A DNA stretch of 64,000 bases. Origin: an uncultured virus (IMG/VR IMGVR_UViG_3300049982_000206). Taxonomy: Duplodnaviria > Heunggongvirae > Uroviricota > Caudoviricetes. Below are positions 341 through 57,012 of the stretch, piece after piece. A program made the translations under genes and the position numbers. A model generated the notes under the pieces. It ran no database searches. It was not told the origin of the DNA and saw only the letters and a list, made by a program, of their open reading frames with translations. The stretch lies in the IMG/VR virus record IMGVR_UViG_3300049982_000206; one strand, 5' to 3'. Positions within the stretch are counted from its first letter, which is position 1; the number at the start of each line of letters is the position of its first letter.

Positions 341-359
341 GCGCGACGAGCAACCGCGC
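341..359 (+). promoter_or_regulatory. GAGCA-loop leader hairpin (variant) upstream of RBS
   Basis: GCGCG-ACGAGCAAC-CGCGC followed by AGGAG and ATG 379. Confidence 0.55.
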
Positions 360-378
360 AACCGACTAGGAGACCCCC

Positions 379-1788
379 ATGAACGCCACCAACGGCCTCG
401 ACCAGTGGGCCAAGGACCACAACTGGGCGCTGATCATCACCGGGCTCGTTGTCGTCCTGGTCGCCTCGGTGCTGGTCGTCCGCGCACTCCGCCGCGCCAA
501 CGCCGTACGGAACGGGCTGACGGCCGAGCAGCGTGACACCCGCCAACGCCGGATCGAAGATGCCGCGACCATCGCTGTCGCGCTAGTCGCCTCCGGTCTC
601 TCGCTCACCGGCCTGATGAAGTACGCCGAAGACGTCCTGGGACTGAAGGAACTGCCGCTGAACCTGCTGCCGTACTTCGGCCTGGACGCGGCCGTCATCG
701 TCTGCGCGATCCGCGCTCGCCGACGTTCGCGTAACAACGAGTCCAGCGGATGGAACGGTCGGCTCGTGTGGGTCTTCGCGGTCATCTCGGCCACGTTCGG
801 GTACTCCGAAGGGCACAGCGTATGGAGCGGGCTGGGTCGGGCCGTGTGGCCGCTGATCGCTGCCACCCTCTTCGAGTTGGGCCTGATCGAGCAGCGTCAC
901 GCAGCGCAGCGCGACGTGAAGCGTCGGCTCAACCTCGGCTGGGCACACCCCCTCGAACGGTTGCGCGTCTACTCGATCCTGTCCGCCGACTCCAACCTCT
1001 CCGCCGATGAGGCCACCCACGAGGTACGCGTCAATGCAGCCGCCAAGGCCATGAACCGCCTCCGCAACGCAGACGCTGCGGCAGTGTCAGGCGGCCGGAT
1101 TGCCCGCGCGAAACTCCGCCGTGTCGAGCACCGCACCCAGCGGGTGCTCTTGCGCGCGAAGTTCTCCGACCCGCAGGTCGCCGCCGAGGTGCTGCAGCGC
1201 ACCCAGGCCATGGTCCGGACGCGCGACTTCGCGCGCATGGACTACAGCGCGCTGGACGACGCGCGCGCCATGCTGAGCGACGCGATCGACCACACCGTCG
1301 TGTCGAGCCATCCCAAGCGGCCCCGCCCGGCACCGCGCCGGCCCGAGCAGAAAACACTGGACAGCGCGCCGAGCCGGACCGCGGCACCGGCTCCGCAGAC
1401 CTCCGCGCCTGCACCGGCCGCGCGTCAGCCCGAGCAGGAGATCGCTCCGGCCGTCGCCGAGCAGGTGCCGAGCGCGCGCGCGATGGAAGACCAGGGCGCG
1501 CGCGACCCGCGCTCGATCGTCGAAGACATCACGCGCGAGATGATCGCCGAGGACGACAGAGACAAGCCCGACGCGGCCGAGGTACGGCGGCGCGCAGGGT
1601 TCGGCCCCACCGACAAACCCGTCCCGGCCACCGTCCGGAACTGGGTCAAGACCGTCTGGGAGCAGCACCTCGAAGACCGCGAGCGCGTGCAGCGGGAAGA
1701 CGCGCGCGCCGAGGTCCACCTGGCCGACCCGCTCGCCGAAGACGAGTTCGGTGACGCGCCCCGCGCGCGTCACGCCGGCGCCGCCTAA
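379..1788 (+). CDS. DUF2637-like multi-pass membrane protein (actinobacterial mobile-element spread/transfer type)
   Basis: several N-terminal hydrophobic helices, 'LPYFGLDAAVIVCA..VWVFAVISA..WPLIAATLFEL', Pro/Ala-rich linker; AGGAG RBS. Confidence 0.65.
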   Translation: MNATNGLDQWAKDHNWALIITGLVVVLVASVLVVRALRRANAVRNGLTAEQRDTRQRRIEDAATIAVALVASGLSLTGLMKYAEDVLGLKELPLNLLPYFGLDAAVIVCAIRARRRSRNNESSGWNGRLVWVFAVISATFGYSEGHSVWSGLGRAVWPLIAATLFELGLIEQRHAAQRDVKRRLNLGWAHPLERLRVYSILSADSNLSADEATHEVRVNAAAKAMNRLRNADAAAVSGGRIARAKLRRVEHRTQRVLLRAKFSDPQVAAEVLQRTQAMVRTRDFARMDYSALDDARAMLSDAIDHTVVSSHPKRPRPAPRRPEQKTLDSAPSRTAAPAPQTSAPAPAARQPEQEIAPAVAEQVPSARAMEDQGARDPRSIVEDITREMIAEDDRDKPDAAEVRRRAGFGPTDKPVPATVRNWVKTVWEQHLEDRERVQREDARAEVHLADPLAEDEFGDAPRARHAGAA

Positions 1789-1806
1789 CCAGCGCGCTAG
1801 ACAGAC

Positions 1807-1838
1807 CGAAGCCCCCGAGTCCACACTCGGGGGCTTCG
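1807..1838. terminator. bidirectional hairpin between convergent genes
   Basis: perfect 14-bp stem CGAAGCCCCCGAGT-ccac-ACTCGGGGGCTTCG. Confidence 0.8.
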
Positions 1839-2939
1839 TCATGTAGCGGTGTCGACGTCCTCCGCGTCTGGAGGCTCCGCGCTGCCCCGGAGCGCGGCCC
1901 GCCCCTCCGTGATCTGTCGGTAGGCGCTGTTCTTAGACGCCGCTGCCCTGATGGCCGCCGCCGTGGCAGTCAGGTAGATCTGGGTGGTCTGCAGCGACGC
2001 GTGCCCGAGCATCAGCATCAAGTCGATCCCCGTCACGCCCTGCTCAGCGAGCCGTGTCGCCCCCGTGTGCCGGGTCGCGTGCACCAGCGCGCCACGCGCG
2101 CGCGTCGCCTCCACGCCAGCGGCGATGTACACCTTCTTCACCAGGTACTGGAGCGCGCCGCGCGCCATCCGCCCACCGCTGCGATCGACGAACAGGGGAG
2201 CGTCCGGCGGGAACCACTCCCAGATCGGAGCATCCTCGGCGACACCGCGCGCACGGACCTGGCCAGGGAAGCGCGCGCGTCGCGACCGGAGATAGTCCTC
2301 CAGCACCTCGATAGCCACCTGCTCAACCGGTACGACGCGTTCCTTGCCGCCCTTGCCTCGGACTCGGATCCGCTGGCGGCCCGGCGTGTAGGTGATGTCG
2401 CCGATGTTCGCGTCCAGCAGTTCGCCGGTCCGGATCACCGTCAGAAGCAGCGTGAAGAGCGCTGCCGCGTCCAGCTCGGGCCATGGTTCCCGCCGGCTGA
2501 CCGCCGCTTCCAGTACGGCGGCGATGATCCGGGCCTCGTCCTCCTCGCTGAAGGCACGAGGCACCCGCGGGGGAGCGGACGGCCGGGGGATGCCCGGCAT
2601 GGGAGAGCCGTCGAGCAGGTCCTCGCTCACGAGGAACTTGAAGAACTCCGACCAGGTGGAGTGGCACCGCCGTACCGTGCTTGCCTGGCGCGGCGTCGAC
2701 CAGGCCGCGAACGCGCGCCGCATCGTACGCAGATCCCGGATCTGCGCCAGGGTCACATCGGCCCGTGCGACGTCGAGCACGCGCGCGACTTCGCCGAGCA
2801 CCGACCGGAGATCTCGCCGGTACGCCGCTGTCGTGTTTTCCGAGTCCTTCCTCGGCGCCCGCGCCACGAAGAACTCCTCGATCGCGCGCTCCACCTCCCC
2901 GAGTTGCCGCGCGAGTTCGGGAGCTGGCTGCGCGCTCAC
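1839..2939 (-). CDS. tyrosine recombinase/integrase (XerC/D-like)
   Basis: T..AYRRDL N-domain; catalytic R (IRTGEL), K (VRGKGGKER), HxxR (HATRH), LGH, Y (TTQIY); start taken at GTG 2939 overlapping upstream stop (ORF open to 2996). Confidence 0.93.
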   Translation of the reverse strand: MSAQPAPELARQLGEVERAIEEFFVARAPRKDSENTTAAYRRDLRSVLGEVARVLDVARADVTLAQIRDLRTMRRAFAAWSTPRQASTVRRCHSTWSEFFKFLVSEDLLDGSPMPGIPRPSAPPRVPRAFSEEDEARIIAAVLEAAVSRREPWPELDAAALFTLLLTVIRTGELLDANIGDITYTPGRQRIRVRGKGGKERVVPVEQVAIEVLEDYLRSRRARFPGQVRARGVAEDAPIWEWFPPDAPLFVDRSGGRMARGALQYLVKKVYIAAGVEATRARGALVHATRHTGATRLAEQGVTGIDLMLMLGHASLQTTQIYLTATAAAIRAAASKNSAYRQITEGRAALRGSAEPPDAEDVDTAT

Positions 2940-3250
2940 GACTGCCGGCCAGGAACCGGTAGGGGAGTGGGGTGCGCTGGGAGGACCGGTGTCCACGGAT
3001 CAATCCCTAGCCTCCTCCGCAGCTCCCGGTTCTCTTCCTGCACCCGGTCGAGGTTGCGGCAGAGAGGTTCGAACTGGCGGCGGATCTCGGCCAGCACATC
3101 CTCTGCGCGCTGCGCGCGTACCTTCAGCTCGCGGCAGGTCTGCGCGTGCGAGTCGTCGGCCAGGAGCGCGCGTAGCTCGCGCGCGAGGTCGGCATCGAGG
3201 TGGTCCGCGAGCGCGCGCAGACACTCGGCCGGTTCGGCGCGCTCGGTCAC
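2936..3250 (-). CDS. hypothetical coiled-coil protein
   Basis: coupled by GTGA overlaps to neighbours. Confidence 0.6.
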   Translation of the reverse strand: MTERAEPAECLRALADHLDADLARELRALLADDSHAQTCRELKVRAQRAEDVLAEIRRQFEPLCRNLDRVQEENRELRRRLGIDPWTPVLPAHPTPLPVPGRQS

Positions 3251-4994: not shown

Positions 4995-5284
4995 TTTATG
5001 GTTGTCTACGCGCGCTGCGCGCGTGGGCGCGTAGAGAGCCTCCGCGCCCCCGCAGCCCGCCGGTGCACCCATGTGCCTTACGTGACGTCGCGCTACGCAC
5101 GTCCGCGCATCGCGCCACGTCCATGCGTCCGCGCATCCGCGACGCCTGAGAACCCGCGTGCACACGCAACCTTCCGGGCCCCCGGTCGCCAATGGATCGC
5201 TCCCTGCAGCAGGGCTGGCCTTGGCGTGGAGAGGCGGGAGTGGATGCGACGGCTTCAGGCCGGCTCGCTGAAGAATCCCGTCCG

Positions 5285-5343
5285 TTGACCATGGCGTTAA
5301 GCGGGTGTACGCTCGGGTCATGAGTTGGGAAGAGCCGCCCAGC
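5285..5343 (+). promoter_or_regulatory. class I promoter/operator + leader hairpin
   Basis: TTGACC-17-TACGCT with GTTAAGCGGGTG spacer; GTTGGG-AAGAGCCG-CCCAGC. Confidence 0.85.
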
Positions 5344-5364
5344 CAAGATCTAGGAGCCGGAACC

Positions 5365-5553
5365 ATGCCGAAGACCCAGAAGGTCACCCTGAGCGTCACG
5401 ATCGAGATCGACCCCGAGGCCTGGGATCTCGCCTACGGCACCGGCACCTCGACGACGGAGATCCGCGACGACGTCCGGAGCTACTTCATCAACGTGATCC
5501 AGGCGGGCGGCGCTGGTGACGGCGCAGTCCGCGCAGTCACCAGCAAGTACTGA
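5365..5553 (+). CDS. small hypothetical protein
   Basis: AGGAG RBS after class I unit. Confidence 0.75.
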   Translation: MPKTQKVTLSVTIEIDPEAWDLAYGTGTSTTEIRDDVRSYFINVIQAGGAGDGAVRAVTSKY

Positions 5554-5558
5554 CCGAA

Positions 5559-5583
5559 CCGCGAAGGCGTCGCGCCTTCGCGG
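5559..5583 (+). terminator. GC-rich hairpin after first gene
   Basis: CCGCGAAGGCG-tcg-CGCCTTCGCGG. Confidence 0.55.
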
Positions 5584-5614
5584 CGCGACGCAAGTCCAAC
5601 CACAAGCGCACCGT

Positions 5615-5634
5615 GGCCGGAAGAGCACCCGGCC
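5615..5634 (+). promoter_or_regulatory. GAGCA-loop hairpin without class I promoter
   Basis: GGCCGG-AAGAGCAC-CCGGCC then AGGAG, ATG 5650. Confidence 0.8.
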
Positions 5635-5649
5635 GAACAGGAGACGGAC

Positions 5650-5979
5650 ATGAGCAAGACCGAGCACGACTTCATGTACGACGTCACCGAAGGCGGCGTA
5701 CTCATCCGGTACGGCGTCGACGACGCCATCGACCTCACCACCCCGAGCGAGAACCCCCTCGTCATGCTTGCCAACATCGACACGGTGAGCAGCCTGCTGC
5801 AGAACCTCCTCGACCAGGCGCCCGCGATCCTCGCCGAGCTGGCCGCACTGCGGGCCGAGATCGGCGAGCCCTGCGGCGTCTGCAATGGCGACGGCGGCCA
5901 GGAGGCCGGTACCGGACCGCTCCGCTGGGTCGACTGCCCCGCCTGCGACGGCAACCGGGTGCAGGAGGTCGCGGCATGA
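5650..5979 (+). CDS. hypothetical protein with DnaJ-like CxxCxGxG zinc motif
   Basis: CGVCNGDGG...CPACDG; RBS. Confidence 0.75.
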   Translation: MSKTEHDFMYDVTEGGVLIRYGVDDAIDLTTPSENPLVMLANIDTVSSLLQNLLDQAPAILAELAALRAEIGEPCGVCNGDGGQEAGTGPLRWVDCPACDGNRVQEVAA

Positions 5980-6263
5980 CCGACCAGCCGATGTACTCCG
6001 AGCCGAACTGGGAGCCGCTCGAATCGAAGCTGCGGCCGGAAGCGATGGGCGACTGGATGTGGATGTGCCGCGTCCAGACCAAGGACGGGGTCCTCATCGA
6101 GCAGTACAAGCACCGTGACACCCGCCGGTACGTGAACCTCGACCAGGAGGGCCGCGCCTGGATCATCCGGATCGAGGGGAGCACGGTGACGTACCTGCTC
6201 GCCGATTCGTTCGCTGCGGCGTATCAGGCAGCTGCGGGCAACTTCGCTCATCCCTTGAGCTGA
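5976..6263 (+). CDS. hypothetical phage protein
   Basis: ATGA overlap; 'WMWM..YKHRDTRRYVNLD'. Confidence 0.7.
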   Translation: MTDQPMYSEPNWEPLESKLRPEAMGDWMWMCRVQTKDGVLIEQYKHRDTRRYVNLDQEGRAWIIRIEGSTVTYLLADSFAAAYQAAAGNFAHPLS

Positions 6264-6640
6264 TGGACGGCATCCGCCCGGACCTGGTCCGGGCGGCGAC
6301 CGTTCGCCTGGTCGACGTCGTACTGGAGTCGATGGCGGACGGTCGTCTCGACCGCTCGTCGCTGCGCCGACTACCGCCCTGGCGCGCTGCCGTCCTTGCC
6401 CGCATTGCTTACCGCGCCGGGCTGATGTCGCGCCGCGAACTCGGACGGCTCATCGCCGAGGTCATCGAGGCCGGCCCCGACGGGTCGCTCGCTCCCCCGC
6501 CGACCGGCCAACTGGACGTAATCCACGTCGACGACGAAAGCTTTGTCCTGACGGCAGACGGGGAGTCGACACCCCAGCCGTTAGAGACAAGCCCGGCCGA
6601 CGTCACCGGGAATGGCTCTGGCGCGGGGCGTGGTCGGTAG
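6263..6640 (+). CDS. hypothetical protein
   Basis: TGATG coupling. Confidence 0.5.
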   Translation: MDGIRPDLVRAATVRLVDVVLESMADGRLDRSSLRRLPPWRAAVLARIAYRAGLMSRRELGRLIAEVIEAGPDGSLAPPPTGQLDVIHVDDESFVLTADGESTPQPLETSPADVTGNGSGAGRGR

Positions 6641-6731
6641 TCCTAGTGGTTGCTCGCTCGATGTGCGGGTGGGCGGTGAGATCCCGTCGCAAACATCGCC
6701 GGTCACGGCCCGCGCCACCTCTTCTCATGTT

Positions 6732-6803
6732 GCGTACACCCGCTTATTGCATCTGATGTTAAGCGGGTGTACGCTCATGTCATGAGCCGAAGAGCAGCGG
6801 CTC
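6732..6803 (+). promoter_or_regulatory. class I unit with additional inverted operator copy
   Basis: GCGTACACCCGCTTA (6732-46) inverted to TAAGCGGGTGTACGC (6760-74); TTGCAT-17-TACGCT; GAGCCG-AAGAGCAG-CGGCTC. Confidence 0.9.
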
Positions 6804-6823
6804 CAGAACGAGGAGAAACCACG

Positions 6824-7726
6824 ATGGACCTGGCCACCGCCACCCCGGCCGAGATCGACACCGAACTCGCCAAGCTGTATGCCGCCGAGCTGGCTGCTGA
6901 ATCTGCCATCGCCGCCCTGATCCCCAGCATCCACCGGTACGCCGGCGACCCGGGACGCAAGAACCGCGGCTTCACCCTGTACGACCTCAACGACGCCGTC
7001 GCCGAAGAGAAGACCCGCGAGCTGGCCGCCGGGAACGACTACAGCGCCACCAGCGCGCAATGCGTCCTCAACAACCTCGATGCCGCCCGTTTCGTCCGCG
7101 ACTCGGCGCGTGACGCCTCCAGGCCGCTCGACGAGGAGTACATCGCGCGCGGTGGCTGGAGCCGTGCCTTCCTCGTCACCTCCAGCGATGGCCACGTCCA
7201 CAGCTCGATGCACTGCTCGACCTGCAACAACGGCCAGTACCGCACCAGCTTCCACTGGCAGCCCGAGTACTCCGGTGCCGACGAGGCCGCGATCATCGCC
7301 GCCGCCGGATATCGCGCCTGCACTGTCTGCTACCCGAATGCCCCGGTCGACGCCACCCCGGCGAGCCACCCGACCAAGATGTTCAGCGCCGACGAGAAGG
7401 TCGCCCAGAAAGCCCGCGAAGAGCGCGCCGCAGCGAAGGTCGCCCGGGACGCGAAGAGGATCGCCAACGCGCTGACCGCCGACGGCTCCGAGCTGATCGT
7501 CACCGACGGCAACGGCCACCGCGAGGCGTTCAGGACCGAGCGCGCGGCCACCACGTGGCTCGTGCAGAGCATCGGCTACAACCGCTACTTCGGCTACAAG
7601 GCCAGCTTCGAGGCCGAGCGCACCGTGATCGAGGCGCTCGCCGCCAAGCACAGCAAGACCGTCGCCGAGGTTGAGGCCGAGATCGCGGCCAAGGTCATCG
7701 CCTGGGCCAAGCGCAACGCCGCCTGA
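6824..7726 (+). CDS. conserved actinophage hypothetical protein (Cys/His metal-binding)
   Basis: 'GGWSRAFLV..GHVHSSMHCSTC..W.PEYSG..ACTVCYP'; AGGAG RBS. Confidence 0.8.
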   Translation: MDLATATPAEIDTELAKLYAAELAAESAIAALIPSIHRYAGDPGRKNRGFTLYDLNDAVAEEKTRELAAGNDYSATSAQCVLNNLDAARFVRDSARDASRPLDEEYIARGGWSRAFLVTSSDGHVHSSMHCSTCNNGQYRTSFHWQPEYSGADEAAIIAAAGYRACTVCYPNAPVDATPASHPTKMFSADEKVAQKAREERAAAKVARDAKRIANALTADGSELIVTDGNGHREAFRTERAATTWLVQSIGYNRYFGYKASFEAERTVIEALAAKHSKTVAEVEAEIAAKVIAWAKRNAA

Positions 7727-7735
7727 TCCCTTCCC

Positions 7736-7762
7736 GGGCCGCCCGACCCCATCGGGCGGCCC
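7736..7762 (+). terminator. hairpin after first gene
   Basis: GGGCCGCCCGA-cccca-TCGGGCGGCCC. Confidence 0.55.
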
Positions 7763-7808
7763 CCCTCCCCCGCGACGGGCACCGCGACCACACAGGAGAC
7801 TGAGCACC

Positions 7809-8213
7809 ATGAAGCTGAAGCTGTTCACCGGCACCGCCGTGTGGGTACCGAAAACGTGGAAGGACCGCGTGACGGAGAAGCCCCACTCGCAGCTCGACGT
7901 TGTGATTGTCGCTGCCTCGAAGGCCGCAGCCGCCGAGATGCTTGTTGGCATCGGCGAGCACGAGACCACCGCCAAGGGCATCGTCGCCGCATGCAAGTTG
8001 CAGCGAGACCACTTGAGCGACTCGGTACGGAATCTGATCGAGGGCCAGGTCCTCGACCTGGAGCAAGCCGGTGCGTACGTCTGGAAGAACCACGCGGACA
8101 ACAACCCGATCGCTCGGATCGACGCACCCGGCATGCCGATCGTCGGCTACTTCCGCTACCACGACGACGGCCCCAACGGATGGCACATGTCCGCCGAGAA
8201 GGTGACGTCATGA
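7809..8213 (+). CDS. hypothetical protein
   Basis: AGGAG RBS. Confidence 0.7.
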   Translation: MKLKLFTGTAVWVPKTWKDRVTEKPHSQLDVVIVAASKAAAAEMLVGIGEHETTAKGIVAACKLQRDHLSDSVRNLIEGQVLDLEQAGAYVWKNHADNNPIARIDAPGMPIVGYFRYHDDGPNGWHMSAEKVTS

Positions 8214-8794
8214 CGATGCAGACCGACCGGCCGATCGAGCACACCCAGTTCGCCACCACCAACCGCCCCCTGGGGTGGGTGCTCGACTTCGGTCGCGGCG
8301 ATCGCCGCCGCGAGCTGGACCTCGAAGCGCCGTACCAGCGCGGCGACGTCTGGGGCCACACCCGCCGCCGGAACCTCATCCGCTCAATGCTGCTCGGCAT
8401 CCCGATCCCGAGCCTGGTCATCAACGATCGATTCAGCGCGCGCTTCCGCGAGGCCGGCTACACCCAGGACCGCAACTGGGCCTACGCAGTCGTGGACGGC
8501 AAGCAGCGCGTCACCACGTGGCTGATGTTCGCCGCCGACGAGTACGCAGTGCCGGCCTCCTGGTTCGAGTCCGAGGACATCGACCAGGACGAGGACACCG
8601 ATGACGGCCGGTACGTGCGGTACAGCGGACTGTCCGAACGGCAGCAGCGAAACTTCGACACCATGCCGATCGGCGTCGCCGAAGGCCGCTTCAACACTCT
8701 GGCCGGGGAGCAACTGGTGTTCGATCTGGTCAACTTCGGCGGTGTCTCGCAAGGAGAGTCCGACGACAAACCAGCGCTACCCACAGCGCGGTAG
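8210..8794 (+). CDS. stand-alone DUF262 (GmrS/ParB-like fold) protein
   Basis: PYQRGDVW, LIRSMLLGIPIP, VVDGKQR motifs. Confidence 0.85.
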   Translation: MTMQTDRPIEHTQFATTNRPLGWVLDFGRGDRRRELDLEAPYQRGDVWGHTRRRNLIRSMLLGIPIPSLVINDRFSARFREAGYTQDRNWAYAVVDGKQRVTTWLMFAADEYAVPASWFESEDIDQDEDTDDGRYVRYSGLSERQQRNFDTMPIGVAEGRFNTLAGEQLVFDLVNFGGVSQGESDDKPALPTAR

Positions 8795-8814
8795 CCAGGG
8801 CGTCGGCCCACGTG

Positions 8815-8851
8815 AAGCGGCGGCACACCCACCCCGGGAGTGCCGCCGCTT
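8815..8851 (+). terminator. intrinsic terminator-like hairpin
   Basis: AAGCGGCGGCAC...GTGCCGCCGCTT followed by T. Confidence 0.7.
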
Positions 8852-8859
8852 TGCTGTGC

Positions 8860-8894
8860 CCGGCGCGACGTTAAGCGGGTACCTCGAACAGACT
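8860..8894 (+). promoter_or_regulatory. class II promoter overlapping a partial class I box
   Basis: CGCGAC-GTTAAGCGGGTAC..-CAGACT at 19-nt spacing. Confidence 0.55.
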
Positions 8895-8940
8895 CCGAGC
8901 GGTAGGCAAGGGAGGGCCCCAGCCCCAGTAGGAGACCCCG

Positions 8941-9447
8941 ATGACGACTCACCAGACCCCACCGCCCAAGCAAGCCTCGATGACGCGTGAGCAGTGGCAG
9001 GCGATGGTCCAGGTGGCCAACGACTCGGCCGCGACCGAACCGGTTGACTGGAACGAGACGACCTCACCGCACTTCCAGCCCAGCATCTGGCGCCGGTGGC
9101 TGTGGCACTTCGCCATCCCGATCGGCGAGATCAGGCCCGGCGTACAGGAGATCACCGCCCACTCGGGAACAGCGCTGACCCGGGCCGGCGCCAAACGGAA
9201 GATCGCCCGCCTCGTCACGCGCCACTTCGACGAAGCCGCCGGCCGCGACCCGCACGGGCGCGCCCTCGACGAGGTCCGCCGGATCAGCCTCTGCATCCTG
9301 ATCCTCCTCGGCTTCGCCCTGTTCATGAACTCCCTCGGCTGCGGGCCGTCGGCCCTGGGCGGCGCGCTCCTGGTCACGGCAGCGGTCGGGATAGGTGCCA
9401 CGTTGGTCAAGGCGCGCCGCGCTCGTGGCCGCCATCGCCATGACTGA
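8941..9447 (+). CDS. hypothetical membrane protein
   Basis: two C-terminal hydrophobic helices; AGGAG RBS. Confidence 0.65.
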   Translation: MTTHQTPPPKQASMTREQWQAMVQVANDSAATEPVDWNETTSPHFQPSIWRRWLWHFAIPIGEIRPGVQEITAHSGTALTRAGAKRKIARLVTRHFDEAAGRDPHGRALDEVRRISLCILILLGFALFMNSLGCGPSALGGALLVTAAVGIGATLVKARRARGRHRHD

Positions 9448-9521
9448 CGCAAAGCGTGTGTACACCCGGGCGGGATCGGCCTACTGTGGAGACGACAGCC
9501 CTCCACAGAGGCAGGTGCGCC

Positions 9522-9716
9522 ATGCTGCTGACGACCGCAGACCTTCCCGCCAACTTCCGAGCCGACTTCACCGACCCGAAGACGCTGCGCGCCGTACGGG
9601 CGTCCCGACTCCGCCTCGACCTCGACCGCTGTCAGCACGGCCGGACAGACTGCCCTTCCTGTCTGCTCGATGCTGCCCGGCAGCTGGTCGAGGACGCCAC
9701 ACAGCCCACCGCCTGA
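9522..9716 (+). CDS. small hypothetical protein (CxH..CxxC)
   Basis: ORF followed by hairpin 9728-9761. Confidence 0.55.
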   Translation: MLLTTADLPANFRADFTDPKTLRAVRASRLRLDLDRCQHGRTDCPSCLLDAARQLVEDATQPTA

Positions 9717-9766
9717 CCCCTCCCCTGCGCGCCCCACGAGCCTTCGGGATTCGTGGGGCGCTCGTC

Positions 9767-9826
9767 TTGCCGAGTATGTTAAGGGTGTGTACGCTGGAGT
9801 CATTCAGGCCGGACGAGCACCCGGCC
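9767..9826 (+). promoter_or_regulatory. class I unit
   Basis: TTGCCG-17-TACGCT; GGCCGG-ACGAGCAC-CCGGCC. Confidence 0.85.
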
Positions 9827-9846
9827 GCCAGGACTAGGAGAAAACC

Positions 9847-9996
9847 ATGAACACGCTGCCCACCCGAGTCACCCGCTCCGTCGTCCGCGACCAGCGCCGT
9901 AGCTGCTTCGGCCGGCGCGCGACCGGCCGCTACCTGCTCGCCGGCCGCGCCAACGCCGACCGCAACGCCATCGCCGCTTCCCTCGCCGGGTTCTGA
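9847..9996 (+). CDS. 49-aa basic peptide (below ORF-track cutoff)
   Basis: AGGAG-N6-ATG after class I unit; MNTLPTRVTRSVVRDQRR... Confidence 0.7.
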   Translation: MNTLPTRVTRSVVRDQRRSCFGRRATGRYLLAGRANADRNAIAASLAGF

Positions 9997-10002
9997 TCCC
10001 AG

Positions 10003-10488
10003 ATGCCCGCCCGCGACCACCTGGCAACGGTCACGCAGCTCCCGGTCCCCGATCCCGTCTACCTGACGAAGATCCCCAACACCGCGAACATGAGCCTCGA
10101 CATCGACCGCACGAAGCTGCGCCGTCACATCCTGGCGGCCCGGCTTCACCACGGATCGGACGGCGTACACGGCTCCTGCTACTGCGGTCGACGCCCCAGC
10201 CCTCGCGGCATCCCGCGCGACATGTGGAACCACATCAAGCAGGAGATCGCCGCCGCCACCCACCTGCCCTTCGAGTACGTCGCCGCGATCATGGACATCC
10301 ACCACTCGGCCGCCCAGATGGCGACCGGTGACATGCGCTGCCACTGCGGCGAGACCTACAGCGACGAGGACAGCTACGGCAACGAACGCCACCAGGCCGA
10401 AGCCATCGCCGCCAACGCCCCGGCCGCCGACGTCACCCGGTGCCTCGCCGCAATCCGCGCAGCAGGCCGAAAGCCCACAGGAGACTGA
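10003..10488 (+). CDS. hypothetical His/Cys-rich protein
   Basis: repeated C-x-C-G / H motifs. Confidence 0.65.
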   Translation: MPARDHLATVTQLPVPDPVYLTKIPNTANMSLDIDRTKLRRHILAARLHHGSDGVHGSCYCGRRPSPRGIPRDMWNHIKQEIAAATHLPFEYVAAIMDIHHSAAQMATGDMRCHCGETYSDEDSYGNERHQAEAIAANAPAADVTRCLAAIRAAGRKPTGD

Positions 10489-10492
10489 CCTC

Positions 10493-11260
10493 ATGGATCC
10501 CATTACCGCCCGCACCCCGAAGGGGACCGCAGTCGGCTCCGCGAAGGGCATCGTCCACCTGTTCGACTGGACCTACGCGGACCGACTGACCACCACCGCG
10601 AACGTGGTGGTGGTCAAGGTCATCGGCATGTGCGGCAAGGTCCTACGTGGCAAGCCAGTCATCCGCGAAGGCGATCAGCCGACCTGCCAGGAATGCGTGG
10701 ACGAGCGCGACTACCGCGCCGCCGAGACAGCAGGCTTCGAGCACCGCGTGCGCGCTGTCCGGCGCCCACTCGGCCACAGCCGGATCGCTGGCAACAACGC
10801 GATGCGGTACGGCGCTCAGGTCGACTGCTACACCTGCCCGGCTGCCACCTACGACCAGCGCACAATTTGGTACTCCAACGAGTCCGGCCAGAAGCCCCGC
10901 GCGGAGGAGATTGCCCGCCAGCACTTCCTCACCAAGTACCGCGAGCACCTCGCGGCAGCCAAGCCGGCGTCGGCAACCTCGATCACGCCCTCGCGGCTGA
11001 CCGAACTCCGCGCCGAAGGCCTCGCCAAGGTGAGCCAGTTCGTAGACCCGCATGTGATTGCCCGCGTCGGCGCCATCCTGGACGCCCGAGGAGAAGCCTG
11101 GGCAGCCGCGGTGCTGGGACGCGACATCTCCCGTCGCAGCCTCGGCGTACCGAACCGGCCGTACCTCCGCAACGGCGACGAGTACACCCTCGTTGCCGCT
11201 GACATCGAAGAGGACCGCGCGCGGTTCGCTGCGATCACGGAGACCGGAGACGACGCCTGA
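10493..11260 (+). CDS. hypothetical protein with CxxC motifs
   Basis: AGGAG RBS, TGATG coupling downstream. Confidence 0.7.
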   Translation: MDPITARTPKGTAVGSAKGIVHLFDWTYADRLTTTANVVVVKVIGMCGKVLRGKPVIREGDQPTCQECVDERDYRAAETAGFEHRVRAVRRPLGHSRIAGNNAMRYGAQVDCYTCPAATYDQRTIWYSNESGQKPRAEEIARQHFLTKYREHLAAAKPASATSITPSRLTELRAEGLAKVSQFVDPHVIARVGAILDARGEAWAAAVLGRDISRRSLGVPNRPYLRNGDEYTLVAADIEEDRARFAAITETGDDA

Positions 11261-11613
11261 TGACCGGCCTCGGACTGACCGACCCGCAGATGCACGCCCT
11301 CCAGGCGGTGTACGACCTGTCCGGCGAAGCCGACGGGCGCTGCGAGATGGTCAGCCCGAGGCAGATTGCTCTCCGGCTGTGGCCAGACTCGGCCGCCTGG
11401 GACCGGCGACCACGCCGTCGCGATGGCCACTTCGGTGGCCGTGGCGGCACGATGCCGATGAAAGCCGGGAAACTGCTGTGGACACTGCACAGCCGCGGCC
11501 TGGTCCACCGACACGAGATCCGCAACCTCTGGGCAGTGACAGGCCACGGCATGAACGTTGTCCACGCCGCCAATGCCGTACTGACCCTCCCGACCCTGGA
11601 GCAGACCCCGTGA
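11260..11613 (+). CDS. hypothetical (winged-helix-like) protein
   Basis: coupled ORF. Confidence 0.6.
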   Translation: MTGLGLTDPQMHALQAVYDLSGEADGRCEMVSPRQIALRLWPDSAAWDRRPRRRDGHFGGRGGTMPMKAGKLLWTLHSRGLVHRHEIRNLWAVTGHGMNVVHAANAVLTLPTLEQTP

Positions 11614-12695
11614 CCGTCGCCGAGCAACTGGCGCTGAACTTCAACGCCGGAACCGTGCTGAATGCGTTCGCAGGCCCGGCAGGCTGGGAAGAAGGCGCCC
11701 AGATCATCGGGATCAACACCGACGAGATCCTCGGCGTCGAGATCAACGAGCAGGCATGTACGGCCGCCGTCACCGCCGGGCACAGCCGACACCGGGGAGA
11801 TATCCGAGACGTCGACCCAGCCGACTACCCACACGTCATTGGCTTCCTGTGCTCATCTCCCTGCCCCACCTTCAGTAAGAGCGGCATCCGCTCCGGACTC
11901 GGCGATGACTACCAGGTACTCCTAGATGTGATCACCCATGCCGGCGCGGCGTACTGCCGTTGCACTTGGCAAGAGATCGAGACCGAACTCGGCGTCTGCA
12001 CGGACCCGCGCACCGCACTCGCTGCACAGACGATTCGGTTCGCGCTCGGTCTCCCAAACCTGGAATGGCTCGCGTTCGAGCAGGTCCCGGGAGCCGAGTT
12101 CATGTTCGAGGACATCGCCGCAGAACTCTTGTCCTACGACGACGAAACCGACGAAGGACCCGGGTGGGTGTCCGCGGACGTGATCACCGTCGAAGCCACC
12201 GACCTCGGCATGCCGGTGCGCCGTACTCGCACGTTCCTGGTCGCCCGCCGATCCACCCCGCTAGGCGGGCGCGGCGTCGCTGACCCGGCGCTCGCCCGGC
12301 ACCTGGACTTCACCCCGCACACCTTCGCCGAGGTCCTCGGCTGGGAGCCCGGCCACTCCGTGCGTACCCGCGCCAACCGGCGCCCCACCGGAGGCAACCT
12401 GTTCCCCGCTGACGGACTGGGCTGGTGCCTGACCGAGAAGGCACGCACCTGGGAACGTGACGCCGACGGCCGCCGGCTGACCGCAGCGGAAGCCGGGCTG
12501 CTACAAGGCTTCCGCGCCGACTACCCATGGCACGGATCCCGTACCCGCCAGTTCCACCAGTTGGCCGACGTCGTGCTGCCGCCGGTCGCGGCCGCCGTAC
12601 TCGGCTACGTCACCGGCACGCAGTGGACCGCGCCAGTCCGGGATTACCTCGACATGCTGTACGGCGGCGCTGCTGCCAGGAAGGAAACTGCCTGA
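11610..12695 (+). CDS. DNA (cytosine-5)-methyltransferase
   Basis: motif I AFAGPAG, catalytic SPCPTFS, EQV, RxR, LQGF. Confidence 0.88.
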   Translation: MTVAEQLALNFNAGTVLNAFAGPAGWEEGAQIIGINTDEILGVEINEQACTAAVTAGHSRHRGDIRDVDPADYPHVIGFLCSSPCPTFSKSGIRSGLGDDYQVLLDVITHAGAAYCRCTWQEIETELGVCTDPRTALAAQTIRFALGLPNLEWLAFEQVPGAEFMFEDIAAELLSYDDETDEGPGWVSADVITVEATDLGMPVRRTRTFLVARRSTPLGGRGVADPALARHLDFTPHTFAEVLGWEPGHSVRTRANRRPTGGNLFPADGLGWCLTEKARTWERDADGRRLTAAEAGLLQGFRADYPWHGSRTRQFHQLADVVLPPVAAAVLGYVTGTQWTAPVRDYLDMLYGGAAARKETA

Positions 12696-19860: not shown

Positions 19861-20208
19861 ATGCTGCGACGCATCGCCGTCATCACCCAGGCCGTGGCCT
19901 TCGCCGTCACGGGTCTCCTCGTGCTCCTCGCGCTCGGCCTGCTCGTCACCAGCGATGGCGGCGCGCGCGGTGCGCTCCCCGAGCTGACGCTGCTGGGCGT
20001 GGCTCTGGTCGCGTTCCTGCTCGCCAGTACGCCGTACGTGGTCTCGGACGCGCGCGCGGGCGGCCCGGTTGTCGTGCGCGTCGACCAGGGGCAGGTTGAG
20101 CTGCTGGCGCGCGTGCTCGACGAGACGCTGCTGCCTGCCGTCGGCGCGCCGCCGCGCCCGCCCGCGCGCGTTGACCGGACCGAGCGCGCGCGCCATCGCG
20201 CGCGGTGA
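19861..20208 (+). CDS. two-TM membrane protein
   Basis: hydrophobic helices; GAGG RBS; class II-like motif at 19792-19826. Confidence 0.6.
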   Translation: MLRRIAVITQAVAFAVTGLLVLLALGLLVTSDGGARGALPELTLLGVALVAFLLASTPYVVSDARAGGPVVVRVDQGQVELLARVLDETLLPAVGAPPRPPARVDRTERARHRAR

Positions 20209-20213
20209 CCCAC

Positions 20214-20266
20214 TTGCACGCATATGTTAAGCGGGTGTACGCTCGGGTTACCGGAAGAGCAGCCGG
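20214..20266 (+). promoter_or_regulatory. class I unit
   Basis: TTGCAC-18-TACGCT; CCGG-AAGAGCAG-CCGG. Confidence 0.88.
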
Positions 20267-20285
20267 CCAAACAGGAGGAACCACA

Positions 20286-20456
20286 ATGCGCGTCACGATC
20301 AACCACCCCGACGACATCGACGTCACCGACGTCCCGCTCTACGAGGGCCCAGCCGAGAACGCGTATACCGTGCTCGCGCCCGGCGTCTACGAGACCACCA
20401 CCCCCGGCGTCTCCGTCCAGGTCACCGACACCGCGTCGAGCACCGTCCGCGCCTGA
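20286..20456 (+). CDS. small hypothetical protein
   Basis: AGGAGG RBS. Confidence 0.75.
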   Translation: MRVTINHPDDIDVTDVPLYEGPAENAYTVLAPGVYETTTPGVSVQVTDTASSTVRA

Positions 20457-20521
20457 CCGTTGAGGATCACCGGCCGACCCCCCACGTTCGGCCGGGACCC
20501 CTGAGCGACCAGCACCAACAC

Positions 20522-20541
20522 GGGCCGAAGAGCAGCGGCCC
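20522..20541 (+). promoter_or_regulatory. GAGCA-loop hairpin without promoter
   Basis: GGGCCG-AAGAGCAG-CGGCCC then AGGAG. Confidence 0.8.
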
Positions 20542-20563
20542 ACAACCCCCAGGAGCGCACCGA

Positions 20564-20965
20564 ATGGACCTCATCACCGCAACCAACAGCCAGGTCATCG
20601 CACATGGCGTCCACGTCCTCACCTTCGACGTGCCAACCACGCGCGACTACCTGAACGGCGGCTTCGGTGACCTCGTCGCGCAGTGCTCCTGCGGCGCGTA
20701 CGACTACGTGTTCTCGACCACCGAAGGCGCGTACTGGCACAGCCTTCACCGTGCCCAGCCCCGCCGACACCCGTTCTACCTCACCCTCGACGCTCCAATG
20801 CCAGAGGGCTGGACCGAGGAGCCCGAGGTGGCCGCCGACATTCCGCAGGCACCGCACACACACCTGTACCGGCTCGACCGCCAGTACAGCGCACACGACC
20901 GCGCCCACTTCCAGGAAGCCCGCTGCGAGTGCGGCACAACTGAGACCTTCTCTGTCCGGTCCTGA
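20564..20965 (+). CDS. hypothetical Cys/His protein
   Basis: AGGAG RBS; CxCG motifs. Confidence 0.7.
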   Translation: MDLITATNSQVIAHGVHVLTFDVPTTRDYLNGGFGDLVAQCSCGAYDYVFSTTEGAYWHSLHRAQPRRHPFYLTLDAPMPEGWTEEPEVAADIPQAPHTHLYRLDRQYSAHDRAHFQEARCECGTTETFSVRS

Positions 20966-20972
20966 ACGATCA

Positions 20973-20988
20973 GCCGAAGAGCACCGGC
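20973..20988 (+). promoter_or_regulatory. GAGCA-loop hairpin without promoter
   Basis: GCCG-AAGAGCAC-CGGC then AGGAG. Confidence 0.75.
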
Positions 20989-21005
20989 ACTACAGGAGAC
21001 CCACC

Positions 21006-21242
21006 GTGATCAAGCCCGCCCGACCCAACCACATCGCTCGCGCCGAGGCCCGGATGACCGCTGCACTCGTCAAGGCTGGCGCGTCCGACAACACCTACAC
21101 GCGCATCGTTGTCGAAGACATCATCGGCGAGTACCTCGCGACCGGGAACGTGACAGCGCTGGGACTCATCCGCCAGGCGATCGGCGACAAGCTGACCGAC
21201 GCGCTGGTCGCGGCGCGCGAGACCGAGACGGTTGCGGTCTGA
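21006..21242 (+). CDS. hypothetical protein
   Basis: AGGAG RBS, GTG start. Confidence 0.7.
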   Translation: MIKPARPNHIARAEARMTAALVKAGASDNTYTRIVVEDIIGEYLATGNVTALGLIRQAIGDKLTDALVAARETETVAV

Positions 21243-21553
21243 TGGCGGCAGCGCTGGTCGCCCTCGACGACTGGCACTGGGCCTCCCCCGTCCCCGGCGG
21301 CCCCGGCATCCTGAAGTGGTTGCCCTGCGAGCACGGCCCCTCCGGGCACTGCACGAAGGGCGACCACGAGAAGTGTGCGCACCGATGGGGAGGACCGCAG
21401 CACGGCGGCGTACTGATCCCCGAGGGGTACGTCACCGACCGCCGAGGCATGGTCGGCCCCAGCTTGCCCGCCATCCTCCCGATGCACCGGTGGCGCTGCC
21501 CTTGCGAATGTCACACGGAGGCCGGCGCGACCAACCTGCTCGAACTCCTCTGA
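21242..21553 (+). CDS. Cys/His-rich protein (paralog of 32338)
   Basis: CxxGPxxxCxxGDHxKC...HxWRCxCxCH. Confidence 0.7.
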   Translation: MAAALVALDDWHWASPVPGGPGILKWLPCEHGPSGHCTKGDHEKCAHRWGGPQHGGVLIPEGYVTDRRGMVGPSLPAILPMHRWRCPCECHTEAGATNLLELL

Positions 21554-21570
21554 CTACAGGGCTCTCTTAC

Positions 21571-21629
21571 TTGCGATTAATGTTAAGCGTGTGTACGCTC
21601 TAGTCATCAGGTCGGAAGAGCAGCCGACC
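21571..21629 (+). promoter_or_regulatory. class I unit
   Basis: TTGCGA-17-TACGCT; GGTCGG-AAGAGCAG-CCGACC. Confidence 0.9.
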
Positions 21630-21648
21630 GCGAACTAGGAGAACCATC

Positions 21649-25433: not shown

Positions 25434-25482
25434 CGGTAAGCGGGTGTACGCTCGCGTTGTTGGTCGGAAGAGCAGCCGATCA
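25423..25482 (+). promoter_or_regulatory. class I unit
   Basis: TTGCAC-18-TACGCT; TGGTCGG-AAGAGCAG-CCGATCA (G-U pair). Confidence 0.88.
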
Positions 25483-25499
25483 GGAACCTAGGAGAGACC

Positions 25500-31104: not shown

Positions 31105-31159
31105 CACACCGTAGTAAGCGGGTATACGATCGCCGTACCGTCCGGGAAGAGCACCCCGG
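31101..31159 (+). promoter_or_regulatory. class I unit
   Basis: CTGACA-18-TACGAT with TAAGCGGGTA; CCGGG-AAGAGCAC-CCCGG. Confidence 0.8.
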
Positions 31160-34643: not shown

Positions 34644-34701
34644 TTGCCGAGTCCGCTAAGCGGGTATACGCTGATCGGTGAGTGGCTGATGAGCAGCAGC
34701 C
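34644..34701 (+). promoter_or_regulatory. class I unit
   Basis: TTGCCG-17-TACGCT; GGCTG-ATGAGCAG-CAGCC. Confidence 0.85.
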
Positions 34702-35391: not shown

Positions 35392-35424
35392 AAGGGCTCC
35401 CTGCGGAACGGGCAGGGAGCCCTT
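35392..35424 (+). terminator. hairpin after first gene
   Basis: AAGGGCTCCCTGC-N7-GCAGGGAGCCCTT. Confidence 0.7.
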
Positions 35425-35709: not shown

Positions 35710-35768
35710 TTGAGAAATGCGTTAAGCGTGTGTACGCTGACTATGTGAGTCGGAAGAGCAGCCGACTC
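35710..35768 (+). promoter_or_regulatory. class I unit
   Basis: TTGAGA-17-TACGCT; GAGTCGG-AAGAGCAG-CCGACTC. Confidence 0.9.
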
Positions 35769-35788
35769 GGACAGGAGAAACCGAACAC

Positions 35789-42094: not shown

Positions 42095-42110
42095 TCAGCG
42101 TGTGTACGCT
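42095..42110 (+). promoter_or_regulatory. class I box/-10 without canonical hairpin
   Basis: TCAGCGTGTGTACGCT. Confidence 0.6.
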
Positions 42111-43857: not shown

Positions 43858-43910
43858 TTCACTCCGATGGTAAGCGGGTGTACGCTGGCCTGATCCGGGT
43901 GAGCAGCCGG
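43858..43910 (+). promoter_or_regulatory. class I unit
   Basis: TTCACT-17-TACGCT; CCGG-GTGAGCAG-CCGG. Confidence 0.8.
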
Positions 43911-49444: not shown

Positions 49445-49503
49445 CTGATTTCGATAGTTAGGGTGTGTACACTCGGCGGCAAGACCCCGGAGCAACGAGG
49501 TCT
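49445..49503 (+). promoter_or_regulatory. class I variant upstream of ssb
   Basis: CTGATT-17-TACACT with GTTAGGGTGTG; hairpin AGACC..CG-GAGCAA-CG..GGTCT. Confidence 0.6.
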
Positions 49504-51397: not shown

Positions 51398-51525
51398 CGT
51401 ACACCCGCTGAATGAGTGGTCGACGCGACACTAACCACCCTCCGGATCAAGTCTGTGCAGCATGGCGCTCGCCAACCGCGCTAAGGGTGTGTACGCTCGG
51501 AGTGTGGGCGGAAGAGCAGCCGCCC
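51398..51525 (+). promoter_or_regulatory. composite site: inverted class I box, class II motif, full class I unit
   Basis: CGTACACCCGCTGA (51398); TCGACGCGACACTAAC (51420); TCGCCA-17-TACGCT; GGGCGG-AAGAGCAG-CCGCCC. Confidence 0.85.
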
Positions 51526-51846: not shown

Positions 51847-51848
51847 CG

Positions 51849-52562: not shown

Positions 52563-52578
52563 CTTCCGAGGAGCACCC

Positions 52579-55544: not shown

Positions 55545-55614
55545 TGCCCCCAGCAACCCCCGTCTTGAGGCCCTCCCACGGAGGCCACCAAGACCGCCCG
55601 TGAAGGAGTTCGAG

Positions 55615-56388: not shown

Positions 56389-56401
56389 TGGACGACCTTC
56401 C

Positions 56402-56436
56402 TCGGCGCGACACTACGTTCGTGCTCGCGGCACGGT
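56402..56436 (+). promoter_or_regulatory. class II promoter
   Basis: TCGGCGCGACACTAC..CACGGT, 19-nt spacing. Confidence 0.75.
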
Positions 56437-56469
56437 GGCAGTCAGACCCCTGCTGAGAGGACCCCCTCA

Positions 56470-56838
56470 ATGACCGAGACACCGCCGACCGCCGCCGGAG
56501 AGGACCAAGAGAAGGCTGGGGGGTGGCAGGGCTACCTTCCGAAGTTGCCTTCCGGCTGGCGCTATGAGGTCAGGCTGGTCTCTTCCGACGGCCACATCAC
56601 AGTGGCATCCAGACCGGCGCATCCTGACGAATGGCGCACCTCGATATCCGACACTCCGGCGGCCGGCAAGATGCGCGATGTCGTCTCGGCCAGCTTCAAG
56701 GCGGCGATCGCACTCGCGGTTGGTGCCGCCAAATCGCTGTCGAAGATCAGTGCCAAGGAGCGGGAACTGGCGAGCGAGCGTGCAGACCTTTTGGATGCGC
56801 TCGGCTCTGAGCCCACGCCGCCCGAAGTCGTCGGATGA
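56470..56838 (+). CDS. hypothetical protein
   Basis: GAGG RBS. Confidence 0.65.
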   Translation: MTETPPTAAGEDQEKAGGWQGYLPKLPSGWRYEVRLVSSDGHITVASRPAHPDEWRTSISDTPAAGKMRDVVSASFKAAIALAVGAAKSLSKISAKERELASERADLLDALGSEPTPPEVVG

Positions 56839-56954
56839 TCAGCATGGTGGTGTACGCCGTACTCGCCGGATTCCTGGCGGGCGTCACCACCATGCTCGCG
56901 ATCCGCGTTCGGCCGAGCCGCAGCGGCGCTCTCCAATCTGTCGCCGCTGCCCTC

Positions 56955-57012
56955 TTGCTCATTGACGGTAAGGGTGTGTACGCTCGAATAAGTCGGATAG
57001 AGCAACCCGACT
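56955..57012 (+). promoter_or_regulatory. class I unit (10-nt loop variant)
   Basis: TTGCTC-18-TACGCT; AGTCGG-ATAGAGCAAC-CCGACT. Confidence 0.8.

Follow-up and report, generated by a model that had tools for sequence, protein, structure and literature searches.

The hairpin family and its surroundings

The DNA analysed here, a 64-kb stretch from an uncultured virus (IMG/VR record IMGVR_UViG_3300049982_000206; hereafter the window), is part of a large soil phage of Actinobacteria, and it carries a dispersed family of small hairpins that share a GAGC-containing loop and stand in front of ribosome-binding sites (RBSs). The window has a G+C content of 65-70%, and its + strand carries nearly all genes. 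Those that could be recognised encode a tyrosine integrase (on the minus strand), a HerA/FtsK-like ATPase, a C5 DNA methyltransferase (11058-12692, + strand), a CHAP lysin-like protein, an SSB, a Cro/C1-type helix-turn-helix (HTH) protein, and ASCH, DUF1643 and GmrSD-like proteins. Pfam and PHROGs scans left the majority of the open reading frames (ORFs) without an assigned family, and most genes downstream of the hairpins are likewise without one. No tRNA gene was found in the window, megablast of positions 5000-12000 against phages gave no match, and there was no near-identical phage record.

An earlier note on this DNA had listed 16 of these hairpins and a further variant at 49482, and all of them are present on the + strand as stated there. 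By scanning for GAGCA between complementary arms, we found an additional member absent from that list at 61459-61478 (GGCCGG / ATGAGCAC / CCGGCC, then AGGAG), which brings the tally for the window to 17 copies plus the bulged variant at 49482 (Table 1). Every hairpin lies on the + strand ahead of an AGGAG-type RBS, at a distance of 4-12 nt. The stems are 4-8 bp long, with G-U pairs at 5324 and 25461 as the note had claimed, and the loop follows the consensus A-N-GAGCA-(G/C) in 15 copies, the sites at 341 and 56991 having variants of 9-10 nt. Ten sites have AAGAGCAG or AAGAGCAC as their loop, those at 34684 and 61459 have ATGAGCAG or ATGAGCAC, and five of the 17 copies have a C or T directly ahead of GAGC. 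The heptamer AAGAGCA occurs 14 times in the window (12 times on the + strand) as compared with 3.6 times expected, a count that none of 100 shuffles reached, and 10 of its 12 copies on the + strand fall inside a hairpin loop.

The stems were said to co-vary, and this was borne out. In a gapless alignment of 15 window sites, 91.1% of the cells were paired as compared with 65.8% in shuffles; double changes occurred in five of the six pairs, none of 500 shuffles matched the covariation score, and slid registers remained far below it. The loop-closing pair was G-C in all 15 aligned copies. Because the aligned sites had partly been chosen for pairing, RNAalifold was run separately on the 57-nt leaders of these 15 sites, and it recovered this hairpin alone. 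The conserved parts of the leader alignment were the hairpin, a short RAC and the Shine-Dalgarno (SD) sequence that follows the hairpin (AGGAGA), and nothing else. When the 15 sites were turned into a covariance model, its only hits above 20 bits in the window were these same 15, all on the + strand.

A search of the whole window against Rfam 15 gave no match at gathering score; with E values of up to 10 on 20150-21700, a segment with four hairpins inside, there were four weak matches, none over a hairpin. Literature searches with the promoter and hairpin strings returned primers and unrelated sequences only, in agreement with the view of the earlier note that the motif is undescribed, a search on Gilgamesh (a related phage introduced below) found no paper, and one on general terms showed nothing relevant among the papers listed. 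In a hunt for an anti-loop partner RNA, the loop complement was found on the + strand of the window in two copies only, without telling context. A hairpin at 63450-63467 (+), inside the GmrSD-like ORF, has the complement of the family loop (TTGCTCTT) as its own loop, probably by chance.

Promoters and terminator-like hairpins around the family

Twelve of the hairpins lie directly behind what the note had termed a class I promoter, and those at 341, 5615, 20522 and 20973 have no promoter within 45 nt, both as claimed. The 16-base core of this promoter, TAAGSGKGTRTACGMT, matched the window 17 times (IUPAC search with at most two mismatches) as compared with 0.11 matches expected. Actinobacterial housekeeping promoters take the form TTGnnn at -35 and TAnnnT at -10. 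In nine of the 12 hairpin-linked promoters, a TTGnnn is located 17-18 nt ahead of TACGCT, with the conserved spacer TAAGCGGGTG; these nine have the housekeeping form, and the hairpin-linked promoters would be active as host-type promoters. Bacterial transcription usually starts 6-8 nt past the -10 element, and since the promoter-linked window hairpins start 7-10 nt past the -10 end, the message should begin with the hairpin. Promoter and hairpin are separable modules, given that four hairpins lack a promoter and that the cores at 6731 (-), 42095 and 61380 lack a family hairpin. The segment 42095-42150 is possibly a decayed family member.

The note had also described terminator-like hairpins at 5559, 7736, 20470 and 35392; these are present and fold strongly, but their U-tracts are absent. 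Two of the four promoter-less family hairpins come after such strong U-less hairpins. The arrangement bears on the possibility that the hairpin is a tag for processive antitermination, as nut/boxB and put sites are, in which case the nascent hairpin would recruit a factor to RNA polymerase, or modify the polymerase directly, and thereby permit reading through the U-less hairpins. Such a tag would agree with the 12 promoter-proximal copies, with the strong hairpins behind the first gene of several units, and with a fixed loop on a variable stem, which is the boxB pattern. The lambda-type nut boxB is a small promoter-proximal RNA hairpin that is read through its loop and whose stem is free to vary; it occurs at one or two sites per genome with boxA alongside and has no fixed relation to RBSs. 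In contrast, the present hairpins differ in loop length and sequence, and each genome has 17 to ∼38 of them, or about one for every gene. They are also found after terminator-like hairpins and within operons, always adjoining an SD sequence, and such strict adjacency to the RBS speaks against a nut-like antiterminator. No second conserved element emerged from the 15 aligned leaders, although no dedicated boxA search was made, and no lineage-wide antiterminator-like protein was found, the Pfam and PHROGs scans of the window and the related phages G001 and Gilgamesh being blank for what are small, poorly modelled proteins. Among the functions offered by the earlier note, a stability or processing tag or a translational operator therefore fits the anatomy better, while a nut/boxB-like antiterminator fits worst in view of RBS adjacency, copy number and the lack of a second element; we consider it quite unlikely.

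Table 1. Hairpins, promoter cores and other features of the window.
Feature	Position	Strand	Structure or sequence	Context
Hairpin	341..359	+	5-bp stem, 9-nt loop ACGAGCAAC	no promoter; precedes gene 379-1788
Hairpin	5324..5343	+	loop AAGAGCCG, one G-U pair	promoter 5298-5313 upstream
Hairpin	5614..5635	+	7-bp stem, loop AAGAGCAC	no promoter; after terminator-like hairpin 5559-5583
Hairpin	6784..6803	+	loop AAGAGCAG	promoter 6760-6775 upstream
Hairpin	9807..9826	+	loop ACGAGCAC	promoter 9780-9795 upstream
Hairpin	20251..20266	+	4-bp stem, loop AAGAGCAG	promoter 20228-20243 upstream
Hairpin	20522..20541	+	loop AAGAGCAG	no promoter; after terminator-like hairpin 20470-20495
Hairpin	20973..20988	+	4-bp stem, loop AAGAGCAC	no promoter; abuts stop of gene 20564-20965
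Hairpin	21610..21629	+	loop AAGAGCAG	promoter 21584-21599 upstream
Hairpin	25460..25483	+	8-bp stem with G-U, loop AAGAGCAG	promoter 25437-25452 upstream
Hairpin	31142..31159	+	loop AAGAGCAC	promoter 31115-31130 upstream
Hairpin	34684..34701	+	loop ATGAGCAG	promoter 34657-34672 upstream
Hairpin	35746..35769	+	8-bp stem, loop AAGAGCAG	promoter 35723-35738 upstream
Hairpin	43895..43910	+	4-bp stem, loop GTGAGCAG	promoter 43871-43886 upstream
Hairpin variant	49482..49503	+	bulged, inner loop GAGCAA	variant promoter 49458-49473 upstream; in SSB leader
Hairpin	51506..51525	+	loop AAGAGCAG	promoter 51482-51497 upstream
Hairpin	56991..57012	+	10-nt loop ATAGAGCAAC	promoter 56969-56984 upstream
Hairpin	61459..61478	+	loop ATGAGCAC	promoter 61401-61416, 43 nt upstream; before gene 61465-61908 (true start likely past hairpin)
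Promoter core	5298..5313	+	spacer TAAGCGGGTG and -10 TACGCT	TTGACC 17 nt ahead of -10
Promoter core	6731..6746	-		back to back with 6760-6775, faces integrase side; no family hairpin behind
Promoter core	6760..6775	+
Promoter core	9780..9795	+
Promoter core	20228..20243	+
Promoter core	21584..21599	+
Promoter core	25437..25452	+
Promoter core	31115..31130	+	variant -10 TACGAT
Promoter core	34657..34672	+
Promoter core	35723..35738	+
Promoter core	42095..42110	+	1 mismatch	followed by unpaired TGAGCAC without clear stem
Promoter core	43871..43886	+
Promoter core	49458..49473	+	2 mismatches
Promoter core	51482..51497	+
Promoter core	56969..56984	+
Promoter core	61380..61395	+	2 mismatches	tandem with 61401-61416; no family hairpin directly behind
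Promoter core	61401..61416	+
Terminator-like hairpin or 3′-end protector	5559..5583	+	11 bp, GC-rich, no U-tract	past stop codon
Terminator-like hairpin	7736..7762	+	11 bp, GC-rich, no U-tract	past stop codon
Terminator-like hairpin	20470..20495	+	8 bp, GC-rich, no U-tract	past stop codon
Terminator-like hairpin	35392..35424	+	13 bp, GC-rich, no U-tract	past stop codon
Gene	62102..62572		weak ASCH match	first of consecutive genes at right window end (62102-64000)
Gene	62394..63437		DUF1643	right window end
Gene	63338 onward		GmrSD/HNH-type nuclease	right window end

The hairpin in related phages

An exact search with the promoter 16-mer led to G001, an IMG/VR contig of 114.6 kb with 10 promoter copies and ∼17 hairpins, which have variable stems and a loop of AGAGCGA or near, and each of which precedes CAGGAG; the -10 end and the hairpin start are 8-9 nt apart. 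G001 is a tailed phage; its genes include those for the tape measure, major tail, major head, portal and terminase, and its capsid protein is closest (42% identity) to that of Streptomyces phage Gilgamesh, a 129-kb phage with S. lividans as its host. Gilgamesh has ∼17 hairpins with stems of 4-10 bp and a loop of AGAGCA or AGAGCAA, which occur on both strands, each ahead of an annotated gene of its own strand, and all outside the 29-71 kb virion block, one of them (71423) immediately past the block end. Several closely follow a TGGTGTACTRTT motif. The hairpin belongs to a phage, as the note had assumed. Covariation was as strong among these homologues as in the window, with 93% of cells paired in G001 and 98% in Gilgamesh and double changes in five of six pairs in each, and the closing G-C pair and GAGC were invariant in the alignments of the window, G001 and Gilgamesh. 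A MAFFT alignment across the loop-length classes went out of register and was not used. For Gilgamesh gene 137 (DNA methylase), the deposited GTG start at 118223 falls within the leader hairpin (L027:28221-28238), and an ATG ∼25 nt past the hairpin, behind a AGAGGAAC site, better fits the pattern of the other copies.

Relatives identified by their terminase were found at 37 loci in IMG/VR. The 11-base core GGAGAGCRMCC occurred 114 times in 16 of 20 relative records, as compared with five occurrences of a reversed control. Specifically, there were 35 copies in G002, 16 in G010, nine in G017 and eight each in G005, G018 and G019; the last two are probably one phage, given their identical hit spacing. 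Core counts were 4.7- to 11-fold above dinucleotide shuffles in the five genomes compared. A second covariance model, built from G001, yielded 37 sites in G002, nine in G018 and one at the metagenome locus L078, and the window, Gilgamesh and G002 all showed the family again in a de novo tally of leader-hairpin loops. Searching genome and metagenome contigs with the promoter 16-mer gave 33 and 64 stretches respectively; among the 10 of these 97 loci with a G+C content above 60% that were inspected, L078 has the module. The HerA/FtsK-like ATPase was rejected as a marker for the hairpin, since among 30 IMG/VR loci only G001 itself has hairpins.

Across the lineage, the loop reads AGAGCA, AGAGCAA, AGAGCGA or AAGAGCAS and is uniform within one genome, GAGCG- or GAGCGA-type loops being found in G001, G002 and G018. 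The family can be defined by a loop that has 6-8 nt, contains an invariant GAGC(A/G) and is closed by a G-C pair, on a variable 4-10 bp stem, located 3-19 nt before an SD sequence and present in many copies, and it often lies just behind a conserved GTACnnT-type -10; the window belongs to it. The module spans phages whose terminases share only 43-51% identity, and the hairpin is characteristic of a Gilgamesh-related lineage, whose phages are 110-137 kb in size.

G002 has ∼38 full modules, including ∼25 cassettes that are near-identical down to the stem, as well as promoter-less copies with unrelated stems; most of its hairpins start 4-10 nt past the -10 end. Its promoter spacer is a different one, TTAAATACCGGTACnnT, with an 8-bp palindrome, TACCGGTA, across the -10 (e.g. 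in L193 and L194) that may be an operator within the promoter. The conserved spacer is specific to each phage, GTAC plus nnT being the only shared part of the promoter. At L195:10422-10454 (-) of G002, a 13-bp stem with an AGAGCGA loop is followed by a T run and then by the SD sequence, resembling an intrinsic terminator and a leader hairpin combined.

Repeated cassettes of this kind recall the PeSL cassettes of the T4-type phages RB49 and phi1, tens of which per genome combine a strong early promoter, a GC-rich stem-loop, an SD sequence and a start codon (Arbiol et al., 2010, PMC2839356). In PeSL the stem-loop is placed ahead of, inside or across the promoter and terminates transcription arriving from upstream, and no conserved loop is described for it (PMC2839356). 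Were the modules mobile cassettes of the same kind, the stem-loop would be an attenuator, terminator or insulator against upstream transcription, the cassettes would be recombination joints that shuffle accessory genes, and the loop would be kept for some other reason. The layout is indeed shared, as both systems place a repeated host-type promoter (here a predicted one), a GC-rich stem-loop, and SD and start ahead of genes of unknown function, which for PeSL lie in variable regions (PMC2839356). Likewise, the gene content of the window, G001 and Gilgamesh is almost wholly different with the cassette retained, the near-identical G002 cassettes include the stem, and one G002 copy has a 13-bp stem and then a U-tract. 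However, the present hairpin lies downstream of its own -10, neither before nor across the promoter, and also occurs without one; the U-tract is missing in nearly all copies (and in every copy of the window), and separate, stronger terminator-like hairpins already stand behind genes. Moreover, the stems drift and the loop stays fixed across genomes at the terminase divergence given above, for which recombination or termination alone is insufficient, and both the phage lineage and the host phylum are other ones. We regard this explanation as unlikely.

The association with translation starts was assayed at 105 sites in eight genomes, picked by loop and closing pairs only. At 89 of them an SD sequence, a start codon and an ORF of 40 codons or more come after the hairpin, as compared with ∼5% of random positions. 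The hairpin precedes the SD by 3-14 nt in the window and in G001, G002 and G018; for the Gilgamesh clade the spacing is 8-19 nt. Among 110 distinct hairpins, G-U was found at 33 positions and A-C at 15, an excess that favours folding of the sense strand. This is consistent with the suggestion of the earlier note that the hairpin would act as a single-stranded, strand-specific structure read through its loop. Collectively, structure and covariation, orientation with strand and gene, a fixed position relative to promoter and RBS, and conservation of the loop across the phage lineage are established for this family.

A signal at the level of DNA could also be strand-specific, have a conserved loop and lie immediately ahead of short leaders: the extruded hairpin would then serve a phage or virion RNA polymerase as its promoter, in the manner of N4, or a DNA-binding protein would recognise the site as an operator or cruciform. 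The lineage does encode giant MuF-fusion virion proteins of unknown function, of 2835 aa in G001 (L237:320-8824, -) and specified by a 13.9-kb coding sequence, gene 48, in Gilgamesh; one piece of these proteins resembles the ParB C-terminal part, and over 1000 of their residues match nothing. As a candidate virion RNA polymerase, the giant protein was rejected for want of a domain hit, PDB sequence match or Atlas hit, and no RNA polymerase domain was seen in it or elsewhere by what were weak tests. Furthermore, a conserved host-type promoter stands immediately upstream of 12 of the 17 window hairpins and would transcribe them, an operator would keep its arms and not its loop, and the excess of G-U over A-C likewise speaks against this explanation. 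We consider a DNA-level signal highly improbable.

Candidate readers and a proposed function

Outside the virion module, we found no phage protein common to all hairpin-bearing genomes, and the lack of a co-occurring phage protein points to a reader of the host. G001 shares six proteins with the window and Gilgamesh three; Gilgamesh and G001 have virion genes in common and little more, and the only non-virion proteins common to Gilgamesh and six relatives are SSB, a ParB-like and a TerS-like protein. Two apparent core proteins considered as readers proved to be terminase-like hits. A gp81-type HTH protein was discarded because it is strong in the Gilgamesh clade only, and so was a TGT (queuine transglycosylase-like) homologue present in just six of 21 records. 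The proteins named in the earlier note as candidates for RNA pull-down (ASCH, a small basic ORF and HTH proteins) did not stand up either, none being common to the hairpin-bearing relatives. A homologue of the window C5-methyltransferase occurs in 10 of 21 records, all 10 of them hairpin-positive, and is missing in all seven records with 0-2 core matches; the hairpin-bearing G001, G013, G018 and G019 are without it, and the records are not independent. This association may simply reflect shared descent. In G002, the C5-methyltransferase gene adjoins a TGT gene.

As a special case of a host reader, an ANTAR-type response regulator would bind the loop, make sequence-independent contacts to the stem, and repress or activate translation. 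ANTAR proteins are widespread in Actinobacteria, with many predicted targets overlapping the RBS (PMC8164766), and the domain binds a single hexaloop with G4 flipped out, its contacts to the closing stem pairs being confined to the backbone (PMC8934654). The classical motif consists of two hexaloop hairpins (PMC3369931, PMC8934654, PMC8164766), in which A1 and G4 are the conserved loop positions (PMC3369931). The phage hairpin resembles it in its short stem, in a loop with conserved A and G and in its position at the RBS, and the Gilgamesh loop AGAGCA is itself a hexaloop with A1 and G4. In contrast, loops in the family range from 6 to 8 nt (8 nt in the window, 7 nt in G001 and G002), C or T precedes GAGC in five of the 17 window copies, and RNAalifold on the 15 leaders gave a single conserved hairpin per leader, not a tandem pair. 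Four further loop positions are invariant here, G2, A3 and C5 are invariant although they are not ANTAR determinants, and Rfam was without a match. The ANTAR domain PF03861 was detected in none of 22 phage records, the control genomes being likewise silent. We consider an ANTAR target very unlikely.

We tentatively propose that the element is a cis-acting RNA leader hairpin that tags messages for stability or translation, inside a portable promoter-hairpin-RBS cassette. In 12 window copies, the hairpin would be the first ∼20 nt of the message; in the remaining copies it would lie inside an operon, ahead of the downstream cistron. A closed stem at the 5′ end, or near it after processing, would shield the message from 5′-end-dependent decay, the stem would hold the SD sequence, located 3-16 nt downstream, unpaired, and the G-C-closed loop with its invariant GAGC would provide a sequence-specific tag. 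By reading this loop, one trans-acting factor would set the translation or lifetime of all accessory, non-virion genes, and such a reader is more likely to be encoded by the host than by the phage, the ribosome platform and an RNA-binding regulator being possible candidates. From this anatomy we infer that the hairpin is transcribed from the predicted start and acts as RNA through a putative reader, which could either raise or lower expression.

Several observations weigh against this proposal. Transcription, the 5′ end and the effects on stability or translation are all deduced from sequence; an E. coli-type promoter scan flags none of the promoters, and TACGCT fits the consensus -10 at just three of six positions. 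The covariation signal stems in part from sites selected for pairing, which biases that test, and a conserved loop would be needless for a pure 5′-protector. The window, itself part of a genome, and G001 share the promoter core yet differ in their loops (AAGAGCAS versus AGAGCGA), and loops that are uniform within a genome and differ between close relatives are easier to fit with a phage-encoded reader. Finally, the complete relatives G003 (L223-L229) and G008 (L230-L236) are without a recurrent-loop leader hairpin in the de novo tally, and the model built from G001 found one and three weak sites in them respectively. G003 and G008 are 134-137 kb long with terminal repeats, and their terminases are 76% and 73% identical to that of Gilgamesh, closer than those of G001 and G002. 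That hairpin-free phages are nearer to Gilgamesh than the hairpin-bearing G001 and G002 implies that the system was lost or replaced in that branch. G003 and G008 constitute natural hairpin-free comparators.

In a more far-reaching version of the leader-tag proposal, a single host reader (an ANTAR-type regulator, the 30S platform or an RNase) of the AGAGC loop on 17 to ∼38 messages per genome might switch the whole accessory set of these large temperate phages or phage-plasmids jointly on or off, as an ancient system; we offer this as a speculation that will probably prove wrong. A bolder form of it would have the C5-methyltransferase homologue, which accompanies the hairpin in 10 of the 21 records, act on the invariant loop cytosine.

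Among actinophages, dispersed repeats with a link to translation starts have been reported from Cluster K mycobacteriophages, where SAS/ESAS elements number 11-19 per genome, have one orientation and accompany non-structural genes only (Pope et al., 2011, PMC3203893). The SAS surrounds the SD and is asymmetric, with a length of 13 bases, and ESAS consists of conserved 17-bp arms with a variable spacer (PMC3203893); a further report gives their function as still open (PMC12699233). The present hairpins resemble them as dispersed, oriented, start-linked actinophage repeats, and SAS/ESAS also vary in consensus between subclusters. The fixed arms and variable spacer of ESAS are, however, the reverse of the pattern described here, and the SAS consensus had one match with two mismatches in the window as compared with 1.6 expected.

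We conclude that the hairpin family is real, strongly selected and strand-specific, and that it is found neither in Rfam nor in the literature searched. As the most likely reading, the module tags RNA leaders for stability or translation within a mobile expression cassette, and it may act by the mechanism and through the reader suggested above. If this is true, one small RNA tag would label a whole class of messages, a kind of regulon not yet described from actinophages; its nearest parallels are unexplained or different, SAS/ESAS being without a function after 15 years and PeSL being terminators. The presence of the same tag in Gilgamesh, an isolated phage with the laboratory host Streptomyces lividans, makes the system experimentally accessible. 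The cassette would also be a compact, portable promoter-leader-RBS unit for high-GC hosts, and it would mark the joints of accessory-gene exchange in this phage lineage.

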